This document shows, piece by piece, positions 19,189-55,067 of a stretch of DNA of 64,000 bases. The stretch is from contig OZ024746.1 of NCBI GenBank assembly GCA_964016885.1, forward strand, positions 17,050,001-17,114,000, written 5' to 3'. A program made the translations under genes and the position numbers. Under the pieces are notes generated by a model. It was not told the DNA's origin. It did not search any database and saw only the letters and a list, made by a program, of their open reading frames with translations. This DNA is from Eledone cirrhosa (lineage: Eukaryota). Numbering within the stretch: the stretch's first letter is position 1; each line of letters begins with the position of its first letter.

Positions 19189-19305
19189 CATGAAACTTGG
19201 CAGATGGGAACCGAAGTTGTGGCCTGCTACAAGTTTCCAGGTGGTTCTTTGGAAGATCTGCCATTCAACAAAGGAGACATTCTTACCATTATCAAGGCAA
19301 CAAGA
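19189..19305 (+). CDS. CSK: CSK exon, SH3 N-terminal half (HETWQMGTEVVACYKFPGGSLEDLPFNKGDILTIIKATR)
   Basis: TTTTCTTCAG| acceptor and AGA|GTAAGT donor, 117 nt, phase 0-0. Aligns to Csk WPSGTECIAKYNF...DLPFCKGDVLTIVAVTK (recalled human sequence). Confidence 0.95.
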
Positions 19306-45396: not shown

Positions 45397-45497
45397 GACC
45401 CTAATTGGTACCAGGCTAAAAATTCATATGGCAGAGAAGGAATGATTCCAGCAAATTATGTTCAAAAGCGACAAGAAGTCTCATTACAGACTATGCC
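45397..45497 (+). CDS. CSK: CSK exon, SH3 C-terminal half and SH3-SH2 linker ([34 protein letters not shown])
   Basis: TTTGTTTATTCTAG| acceptor and ATGCC|GTGAGC donor, 101 nt, phase 0-2. Matches Csk [25 protein letters not shown]. Too short for the ORF track. Confidence 0.96.
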
Positions 45498-51439: not shown

Positions 51440-52290
51440 ACTACTATGAAATGTGAACCTGATATTTGGGATATATTGCTGTGAAATGTGGACCTAGTGT
51501 TTGCGATATATAGCTATGAAATGTGGACCTGTTAATTGTGATATATAACTATGAAATGTTGGTAATGAAGACTGTGTAGCTATGAAATGTGGGTAACAAA
51601 GACACAGGATGTGTAGCTATGAAATGTGGGTGATGAAGACACAGGATGTGTAGCTATGAAATGTGGGTGACAAAGACACAGGATGTGTAGCTATGAAATG
51701 TGGGTGATGAAGACACAGGATGTGTAGCTATGAAATGTGGGTAACAAAGACACAGGATGTGTAGCTATGAAATGTGGGTGATGAAGACAGGATATGTAGC
51801 TATGAAATGTGGGTGATGAAGACAGGATGTGTAGCTATGAAATGTGGGTGATGAAGACACAGGATGTGTAGCTATGAAATGTGGGTAACAAAGACACAGG
51901 ATGTGTAGCTATGAAATGTGGGTGATGAAGACAGGATATGTAGCTATGAAATGTGGGTGATGAAGACAGGATGTGTAGCTATGAAATGTGGGTGATGAAG
52001 ACACAGGATGTGTAGCTATGAAATGTGGGTAACAAAGACACAGGATGTGTAGCTATGAAATGTGGGTGATGAAGACAGGATATGTAGCTATGAAATGTGG
52101 GTGATGAAGACAGGATGTGTAGCTATGAAATGTGGGTGATGAAGACACAGGATGTGTAGCTATGAAATGTGGGTAACAAAGACACAGGATGTGTAGCTAT
52201 GAAATGTGGGTGATGAAGACAGGATATGTAGCTATGAAATGTGGGTGATGAAGACAGGATGTGTAGCTATGAAATGTGGGTGATAAAGAC
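51440..52290. repeat. 35-37 bp minisatellite with a 144-bp higher-order repeat
   Basis: Unit GATGTGTAGCTATGAAATGTGGGTGATGAAGACACAG. The GTAACAAAG variant recurs at 51741, 51885, 52029 and 52173. Confidence 0.95.
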
Positions 52291-53244
52291 AAATCATGTG
52301 TTATGGAATATGATATGGTGAAGTTGAGAAATGTGTTTAGTTAAAGTTAACTTCAGAAATCTTTAATCATTTTGGTACCAACCCACCTGAAACTGCCCCT
52401 AGTTCTATGATACAAAACTGCTTTGTTTTATTAAAGTTTATATTAAAACCTTCCGACTCAATTTTATATAAGAACTTTTTGTTGTGTAATATTGCAAATA
52501 TCAGCTTACTAAAGAAAAGTTATTTTAGTATTTTTAAAATTAGTTAAAACACATAGACACAGTATGTTTCAATAAAAACATGGTAACAAAAGAGTTAAGA
52601 GATGAAAGAGAGATGGCTGCAATAGTATGGACATATAATGTAAATAAACGATATATGCTAGAATTAGGTGGCTTTACAGTCATTGGAAATATGTGAGGTA
52701 GAGAGTGGTGTACTAAAACAAGTGAGATGAACTTGTTAAGTACCTGTGCCATTGTGCAGTCTTGGTATTTTACTGCCTCAGGCTTGGCTCCTTTATTAAA
52801 TTTTGTACTTTTCAAAAATTTGTTAAGAATAAAGTAAAAGATATTTTGATGAAATTTCTTTTATTTATTTTGTCTGAACCTGTGCTTCAAAAACTAAACT
52901 AAAACATACCAGTATGCCATTGGGTGGTAAAAGATATTGTAAATAAGCTTAGCCAGCAACTAGACATAGAAAGAACCTATATTGTAGGTCCTTCAAACCC
53001 ATGCTATATAAACAAACTGATGGTAAAAGAACGACAATAAGGAGCTGTCTGGAAATGTTTTAGGAAATTTATTGTAGGATCTATTTTGTAATATTTATGC
53101 AGTAGCTGTGTTTGACTTATTAAATGATTTGATATTAACAATGTATCTTTTTTTCTTTGTCCTTTGATGCTTTTATTTTTTATATGAATGTTTTGTTTTT
53201 ATTATGCAACCGTTTCCTTTAGCAGCCTGTGATATTTGTTGCAG

Positions 53245-53470
53245 ATGGTATCATGGAAAAGTTAGCCGAGAAGAAGCAGAATCTCTTCTGGCTGGACACA
53301 TGATAGGGTCATTCCTTGTACGAGAGAATGGCCATTACCCTGGGGATTACACCTTGTCACTAGTCATCCCTGGGGATGTAGTGGAGCACTATCGAGTGCT
53401 ACAGACAAACAATAAGGTTGAAGTCGATGGTGGTGATCTTCAGTTCGATACTCTACTGGAGTTAGTTGAG
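53245..53470 (+). CDS. CSK: CSK SH2 exon A, divergent alternative (WYHGKVSREEAESLL...FLVRENGHYPGDYTL...VEHYR...FDTLLELVE)
   Basis: TTTGTTGCAG|A TGG acceptor and GAG|GTATAC donor, 226 nt, phase 2-0, 75 uninterrupted codons. Keeps the Csk-type YPGDYTL and VEHY motifs. Confidence 0.9.
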
Positions 53471-55067
53471 GTATACTTTTCTTTGGAGATAACTTCCATT
53501 TCTTGGAGACACCTCCGGTCTTTCCATCGGAGCCGTCTCTCTTCTCAACACAATTTTCTTTGTTTTTAATTTATTATTAAACATTTGTGCATGTCTGCTC
53601 AGTTAGTGGAAATATTTTGCAGCTATTTATTACTAGTTTGTGGATAAACAACAAACCAAGGATAATTGCATTACCTTGCATCTTTGCTCTACTTATATTT
53701 TATGACTAGATGTGTCACTAAACCATGAGATAGCTACTAGAATATATATATATACAAATATATACATACATATTCAAATATTCACAACAATGTATATAAA
53801 CTACAGTGGACTTCATTTCAAAAAATAAAATATTTTTTCTTTTATTTCTTTAAACATTCAGTAATACCGTATTTAATCATGTATAAGTCGCAGCTTTTTC
53901 AAAGACAATACAATGTGTAAACCAGCATTTGACCTAGCTTCTGGATCTAGAAAACTTCACTTCAAAATATAAAGGACATTGTATGTTATATGTAAGGTTG
54001 AGGTGCAACTTATACATGAATATATATGGTGTATATATTTTTTTGCTCACCACTGTTGCATGTGCAGCAGTTATAAATCTGTCAGTGTTGGGTTTATTGA
54101 ATCACTTAGAAGCTTTGCAGATTTAATTAGAAACTAATTTGGCCAATAATTAAATTTCTGGAATATTTGAGTGTTAAATAATTAGAAATTAATTCTTGAG
54201 CTTGTAAAATGAAAATTAGTTTGTTTTGTTTTGTTTTTTTTTGTTTTTTTATTTATTTATTTTATTTATTCATTAATTTGTTTTGCTGCATAGAATATCT
54301 TAAGCAAGCTTCTTCACTTGTCTCTTCCATTCATATTTATTTAGGTATACTTTTTCATTATTGATACTTTAGGATTAACCTTCATTATGTACTTCTGTTT
54401 AAGTGTTATATAGAATTTAATTACATATAGTGGAAGAGCTAGTTTACCTGAATTTCCTTCTCATAAGAGTAATTCTTCATATTTTACATTGAAACAATCT
54501 CAAGTAGTTTGGAAATGTTTTCTCATCAAACAGAACCATGCTCTTCTTCAGGTTAAGTTTCTACGCTTTTGTATTATTTATTCTACAAATAATATAGATT
54601 GTCATTTGGCTATTTTCATTGTCTCCATTTTAAAAAGAAACATTCTTTTAGTCATGTTTCATCATATAGTGAATCCATCTTATGTAAATGTTCTATATTC
54701 ATATATTACACTCTTACTACATTTTATATAGGATAGGTCTGTAGATATATGTAGTTTATATATATACCATCCAACCCTTGCTAGCAGGGAAAGTGGATGT
54801 TAAAACAACGATTATATATATAACTTATTGAGTGTATTGCATCACACAAGATTCCTGTACCTTGGGTTTCATGAATAATTCTATTCATTCTTCAGCAGGC
54901 CTTGTTTAAGATAGTAAATAAAACGGAAATAAATCCTTTTTAAATAACCAACCCTGTTGAATGAGGAGAATATTAATGAAACCTGATGTAGACATACCCA
55001 ATAAATTGTCTATACTCTATCTGAATGTGTATGTGTATATTATTTATATATATATTATATATGTATC

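Follow-up and report, generated by a model that had tools for sequence, protein, structure and literature searches.

Csk is the kinase that switches off Src, and it is controlled mainly through its phosphotyrosine-reading SH2 domain, which recruits Csk to Src and raises kinase activity. The window (the whole stretch of 64,000 nucleotides analyzed here, G000:C6:17050001-17114000, from a genome of 3.0 Gb) carries on its plus strand the 5' part of an octopod Csk gene, with two SH3 exons and two SH2 exons, termed here A and B. A preliminary description had taken exon A for a maintained paralog with altered ligand preference or altered SH2-kinase coupling. Does exon A provide the same kinase with a second SH2 domain that behaves differently, and how old is such an arrangement?

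Two alternative SH2 exons in one Csk gene

The relevant features, in window coordinates, are as follows.

19189..19305, plus strand: Csk exon encoding the first half of SH3 (tblastn with P0004, 95% over 40 amino acids; AG/GT ends)
45397..45497, plus strand: Csk exon encoding the second half of SH3 and the SH3-SH2 linker, ending in phase 2 (101 nt; AG/GT ends)
53194..53244, plus strand: intronic segment leading up to exon A, alignable in other species (contigs of runs X3, X7 and X22)
53220-53225, plus strand: TAGCAG, second possible acceptor, 19 nt 5' of exon A (a contig of X18 starts exactly at 53226)
53243-53244, plus strand: AG, annotated acceptor of exon A, within 53194..53244
53245..53470, plus strand: SH2 exon A, 226 nt, phase 2 to 0, equivalent to human Csk residues 82-154
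53327..53329, plus strand: AAT codon, Asn at betaB7 (human Csk Ser109); AGC in exon B, and one A-to-G change from a Ser codon
53471..53735, plus strand: intronic segment following exon A, alignable in other species at about 92-93% (contigs of X3, X18 and X22)
59018..59237, plus strand: SH2 exon B, canonical Csk type, 220 nt, phase 2 to 0 (AG/GT ends)

Exon A had been delimited exactly in the preliminary description: AG precedes it, its donor GT lies at 53471, and its 75 codons contain no stop. By tblastn, every exon of P0004 finds its place on G000:C6 in the right order, exon 45397..45497 matching residues 48-81 at 100%, which places SH3, SH2 and tyrosine kinase in one gene. Seven more Csk exons, common to both isoforms, lie beyond the window, from about 17125236 to 17135816 on G000:C6; the kinase exons are shared by the A and B isoforms. 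Membership in the Csk family is indicated by this domain order and by Csk being the top PDB sequence match for B and the top fold match for the A isoform. The best PDB matches of exon B are Csk SH2 domains (E 3e-28). Human Csk numbering is used throughout, taken from the 1K9A match range 82-154.

Exons A and B are homologous neighbors with 49% identity, the same phases and canonical AG/GT splice sites, as expected of tandem duplicates. The earlier estimate of roughly 50% divergence thus holds, while the term paralog has to give way to that of a duplicated exon inside a single gene. A search by tblastn at E 10 gave no third SH2 exon between B and the next exon, and a genome search in which 19 candidates were scored showed exon A in one copy. 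Three other explanations were rejected. A separate paralogous gene is discounted by the position of A between the SH3 and kinase exons of one gene and by its single copy among those 19 candidates; an assembly artefact, by the presence of the same exon A in four named octopods; and a pseudoexon or decayed copy, by its intact state in annotated isoforms, its splicing to the next exon and the protein-level constraint described below.

The reading frame bears directly on how the two exons are used. The SH3 exon joined to A and the next exon, or to B and the next exon, gives an open frame, and inclusion of both or of neither leads to a stop. The frame between the upstream exon and the next exon accepts only one of A and B, so the gene probably makes two kinases. 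A tandem protein with two SH2 domains was rejected for the octopod gene, since A and B together close the frame. In a cluster of 12 octopod isoforms, A is present in 9, B in 3 and both in none. Annotated Csk isoforms of Octopus bimaculoides, O. sinensis, O. vulgaris and Argonauta hians carry an exon A whose protein matches the one encoded here at every residue, whereas exon B shows 2 residue differences from the B of three Octopus species. Six gene models from other molluscs do chain A and B together, though with exons cut short or with read-through sequence separating the two. Mutual exclusion of A and B appears to be strict, and would be enforced at least by frameshift.

Contigs from sequencing runs were compared over positions 52400-53750 only, for 4 of the 24 listed runs (X3, X7, X18 and X22). 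None of the 24 is on record as RNA; three of those compared are guessed to be RNA. In X7 and X18, contigs run up to the last letter of exon A (53470) and continue directly into the opening 21 letters of the shared next exon, so that splicing from A to the next exon is seen in two of the three runs guessed to be RNA. Exons A and B end in the same 9 letters, and a 31-letter assembly path would for this reason stop at 21 letters if a B-to-next path joins it; the 21-letter contig end suggests that X7 and X18 contain both the A and B forms. Run X3 yielded only an unspliced contig over exon A, and the X7 contig reaches into the intron upstream by 51 letters. Among the loose ends tabulated for the three runs guessed to be RNA, a table shortened by 73 ends, none joins the SH3 exon to A, so the upstream junction rests on database gene models. 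We hold the exon structure and the use of A to be highly probable.

Some other elements of this region were noted. A minisatellite lies at window positions 51573-52291, 950 nt upstream of exon A, with a 37-nt unit in about 20 copies and a 144-nt higher-order period. Farther along G000:C6, at about 17152700-17160840 on the minus strand (L010-L011, L002), is an inverted partial Csk duplicate that runs from exon B to the last exon and is 91-99% identical to the main gene. It has neither exon A nor the SH3 exons, its splice sites look intact, and it is missing about 15 kb and 3 kb of intron present in the main gene. A strongly diverged Csk-like gene follows on the plus strand at about 17183320-17196834 (L004, L013-L015), with the same SH2 exon borders and 34% identity to B; one of its kinase exons reads HCDLAARN instead of HRDLAARN, and its tree branch is very long.

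Constraint on exon A and the residues that distinguish it

Exon A is kept under protein-level purifying selection, as had been argued from its open frame. The X22 contig shows 3 synonymous and 0 non-synonymous differences from exon A, and 19 of 316 letters differ in the flanking intron. At that intron rate 3.2 synonymous and 10.3 non-synonymous differences would be expected in the exon (P(0) = 3e-5). Across the four runs there are four differences within exon A, all synonymous. With synonymous sites changing at the intron rate and non-synonymous sites unchanged, the constraint is on the protein.

Residues were compared after 498 domain hits had been reduced to 210 distinct full-length Csk-type stretches (26 A-type, 183 canonical and one reference), which include many vertebrates, so that the residue counts are not independent. 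A mollusc-wide A signature emerges, distinct from two changes confined to octopods. The signature consists of His111 (26/26 A-type against 10/183 canonical), Ser119 (all A-type against 22/183), absence of Tyr133 (present in 0/26 against 148/183), and a DGG motif with Gly142 (26/26 against 1/183) and one added Gly (26/26 against 0/183). The octopod-only changes are Asn109 at betaB7, where all 208 other Csk-type stretches (183 canonical and 25 other A-type) have Ser, and an insert in the CD loop found among A-type exons only in octopods. The octopod A exon accordingly lacks the Ser of FLVRES that marks a canonical phosphate pocket. Ser is missing at betaB7 from 51 of the 343 SH2 stretches fetched that show a clear FLVR-like motif, so Asn at this position need not abolish binding.

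Much of the SH2 core is retained. A-type exons keep Arg89, Arg107, His128, Tyr129, Asp141 and Glu154, and octopod A also keeps Glu127 and Arg130. Exon A belongs to the SH2 fold (PF00017) with both Arg betaB5 and Arg alphaA2 in place, and the first Atlas hits were all to PF00017. At positions 108 and 127 octopod A has the canonical Glu, where most other A exons have Asp. Relative to Csk 1K9A, A lacks Tyr133 and any Cys and has DGG plus one Gly in the EF loop; octopods add Asn109 and the longer CD loop.

The motifs reported earlier for exon A (SREEAE, FLVR, VEHYR, FLVREN, TLSL, one extra residue in the CD loop, and VDGGDLQ in the EF loop, which brings one extra residue with it) can all be read there. 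One detail of that account needs correction. The change from FLVRES to FLVREN is right for A, but exon B reads FLLRES, FLVRES being the vertebrate form. EF and BG had been named as the loops that set selectivity; because BG is encoded by the next exon, which the A and B isoforms share, EF is the one selectivity loop that changes. Within SH2 the differences between A and B fall in the BC, CD, DE and EF loops, and the two isoforms have SH3, the kinase domain and the BG loop in common. Residues specific to A concentrate on the loops that face the ligand and are conserved in three classes.

These patterns bear on a reading under which A and B are biochemically equal and the pair is kept for control of expression, A being tissue-restricted or feeding unproductive transcripts through the acceptor that ends at 53225. 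Use of that acceptor after the SH3 exon is out of frame and meets an immediate stop, and the start of the X18 contig at 53226 would fit it, as would the absence of an SH3-to-A junction among the listed loose ends and the alignment of the intron on either side of A across species. The substitution pattern just described argues instead for constraint on the protein, and conservation of A-specific residues on ligand-facing loops across three classes is likewise at odds with biochemical equality. We regard this reading as rather improbable, and a real biochemical difference between the A and B isoforms as probable.

Both isoforms of O. bimaculoides were modeled with AlphaFold2 from 50-row alignments. 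A is predicted to form the helix-sheet-helix of an SH2 domain, with pLDDT of 83-93 over the SH2 region (78-85 in the B model). The best match of the A model is Csk 1K9A (E 7e-53, TM 0.64-0.72, rmsd 6.7-7.9 A), with Src and Abl at 15-23 A, and its top six fold matches are all chains of 1K9A. These models, made in line with the earlier suggestion that both isoforms be modeled, predict an SH2 fold for A and a Csk-like arrangement of its domains, which falls short of proof that the domain folds or binds.

Distribution and age of A-type exons

A separate search brought up Csk isoforms of other molluscs with the unusual EF loop of octopod A. A profile of 8 such DGG-type exons was searched against 5.8 billion clustered proteins (best 120 of 464 matches) and 1.84 billion representatives (best 150 of 4909). 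Among the matches listed, DGG-type exons occur in at least 17 named genera from three classes, and all named carriers are molluscs; 8 more carriers have no informative name. The genera are:

Octopus, Argonauta
Mya, Mercenaria, Mizuhopecten, Argopecten, Pinctada, Mytilus, Crassostrea, Magallana, Saccostrea, Ostrea
Haliotis, Littorina, Nucella, Biomphalaria, Bulinus

Octopod exon A fits the mollusc A-type definition in every part: DGG with the Gly insert, His111, Ser119, no Tyr133, and a position upstream of B. The same order, A upstream of B, is found in locus L029 and in chained gene models of other molluscs. The borders of the octopod SH2 exons are those of arthropod-like and vertebrate-like Csk loci, and exon B is 67% identical to the mammalian stretch. 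The domain order of the gene is that of 1K9A, and the predicted arrangement of the A isoform is alike; molluscs differ in having two alternative exons for residues 82-154, and some clams and snails have three.

In a tree of 59 rows and 74 columns, all 19 A rows fall on one branch (100/99; the bootstrap is not fully settled), with octopod A as a long end branch of 1.47. Three smaller trees also unite the A rows, and bootstrap values across the four trees are 98-100. The presence of A-type exons in three classes on one branch makes it likely that the exon swap predates the mollusc classes, the divergence of snails, clams and octopuses being Cambrian in age. A single origin of A exons before the mollusc classes split is likely, though not proven, from these sequence comparisons.

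Alternatively, octopod exon A could be a separate duplication in the cephalopod line that converged on the A of bivalves and snails, in which case the exon would be younger and its function might still differ from that of B. AU tests do not reject trees in which octopod A groups with cephalopod B (p values of 0.0506 and 0.101), and octopod A, on its long branch, has just 53% identity to other A exons, compared with 49% to canonical exons. The canonical Glu108 and Glu127 of octopod A point the same way, no squid-like A exon was found among the matches listed (best 120 of 464 and best 150 of 4909), and SH2 exons have undergone further duplication, both in annelid-like loci and in clams and snails. 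A cluster of 9 cephalopod-like transcripts contains B only. The single-residue Gly insert, absent from all 183 canonical stretches, is nevertheless shared by octopod A, which matches 7 of 11 A-diagnostic columns in all. The shared position upstream of B and the bootstrap support in four trees also speak against a separate duplication, which we consider unlikely.

Duplication of this exon has occurred repeatedly, as a third SH2 exon is found in Mercenaria, Mya, Littorina, Nucella and locus L029. The last is a bivalve-like locus (L029:1044-6323) with three tandem SH2 exons, namely A, B and a third. L027 and L029 have in common GGTCATGTGAC directly behind the exon A donor, a possible splice-control element that is absent from the window. 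Among 79 metagenome loci, 4 (L040, L046, L048 and L049) hold two SH2 exons without DGG and are annelid-like by weak sequence evidence. Their paired exons have the same phases (L040:1494-2238, L046:5658-6744, L048:3099-4268 and L049:1409-2838), and L046 is a whole compact gene. These annelid-like pairs reflect either an older duplication or a repeated one.

Docking and activation of the two forms

Mutagenesis and structural work on human Csk has mapped several of the loops in which A and B differ; the statements that follow are those of the accessible parts of the papers cited. The kinase domain of Csk depends on SH3 and SH2, Tyr133 and Glu147 help to relay ligand binding, with Tyr133 part of ligand-stimulated activation, Asn148 and Met150 are linked to constitutive activation, and Glu127 sets the specificity of Csk as against Chk (all PMC10016382). 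A Cbp peptide perturbs the BC loop, betaD and the DE loop (PMC5071372), lengthening the CD loop by two Gly residues lowers Src phosphorylation about 3-fold (PMC3764022), access to SH2 specificity pockets is gated by the EF and BG loops (PMC3507883), and scaffolds both recruit and activate Csk (PMC3492796). In PMC6531875 and PMC3492796, "S109" comes up only in passages of no concern here.

Since A and B differ in the loops mapped by this work, splicing would choose between two forms of Csk. B would be the canonical form, recruited by scaffolds and activated by ligand. A would have a reshaped pocket and weaker ligand coupling, docking on other phosphotyrosine scaffolds and being less activated by them. 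Its specificity pocket may be changed by DGG and the added Gly in EF and by His111 in BC, and ligand-triggered activation may be lost through the absence of Tyr133. Asn109 and the CD insert, as a later change in the octopod lineage, might further weaken phosphate binding and lower basal activity. By analogy with human Csk mutagenesis, altered ligand choice and SH2-kinase coupling of A are likely, and through exon A a single kinase likely gains a second range of docking partners and a different response to them. Octopod A does keep Glu127, the residue of Csk-versus-Chk specificity, which weighs against such a change. Taken as a whole, an exon swap that yields two kinases, with A and B differing in docking and in activation, is the reading we favor with reasonable confidence.

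A more radical possibility is that phosphotyrosine binding is largely gone from octopod SH2-A, which would make the A isoform a scaffold-independent, dampened Csk whose SH2 only props the kinase domain. The substitution of Asn for an otherwise invariant Ser at betaB7 invites this reading, and in human Csk S109C abolished p62 binding (PMC2198989, accessible part); the missing Tyr133, the lengthened CD loop, and a long octopod A branch followed by stasis would also agree with it. Retention of Arg89, Arg107, His128, Tyr129 and Arg130 tells against such a loss, as do the 51 of 343 SH2 stretches that have another residue at betaB7, and the A exons of bivalves and snails, which keep Ser, would be left unexplained. 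Loss of binding is in our view unlikely.

A variant of this idea invokes RNA editing, which the accessible part of PMC8382921 describes as abundantly recoding in coleoid nervous tissue. The genomic Asn would leave SH2-A nearly blind to phosphotyrosine, and A-to-I editing at 53328 (AAT read as AGT, Ser) could restore docking in editing tissues. The Asn codon lies in a predicted short local RNA hairpin, and positions 53190-53740 folded as RNA give a z of -2.8, 1 of 100 shuffles being as good, a weak signal. The best long-range duplex around the codon (-35.6 kcal/mol) falls within the range of -24 to -41 for ten other exon windows. Contigs of three runs show no A-to-G at 53328, which excludes only majority editing in those samples. 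"CSK" does not occur in the accessible supplement text of PMC8382921 (64,827 characters) and PMC9068888 (3,805 characters), which does not include the large site tables. We rate an editing-gated SH2 as a long shot.

On the favored reading of two kinases that differ in docking and activation, molluscs appear to keep an ancient splice switch that exchanges the ligand-facing part of SH2 and spares SH3, the kinase domain and the BG loop. Exon A is a natural domain swap that touches residues known singly from human Csk mutagenesis (Ser109, Tyr133, Asn148 and the CD loop), and so provides a natural test of SH2 loops in specificity and allosteric coupling.

A literature search, which most subscription papers lay outside, found no paper on an SH2 exon swap in mollusc Csk. 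The A and B isoforms are already present in automatic annotations, and the mollusc-wide A-type exon is reported here as new. The swap of tandem duplicated exons is itself of a known kind, FYN being the nearest kinase case. FynB and FynT likewise arise from tandem mutually exclusive exons in a tyrosine kinase of the Src pathway, with one homologous block differing; FYN exchanges the SH2-kinase linker and the start of the kinase domain, whereas mollusc Csk exchanges the ligand-binding three quarters of SH2 (PMC9741552, accessible part). "CSK" occurs nowhere in the main text of that paper. The vertebrate pair Csk and Chk/MATK similarly comprises two Csk-type kinases whose SH2 domains read different phosphoproteins, but vertebrates use two genes that differ mainly at one residue (Glu127/Ile167; PMC10016382, accessible part), and molluscs use alternative exons of one gene, with Glu127 kept in octopod A.
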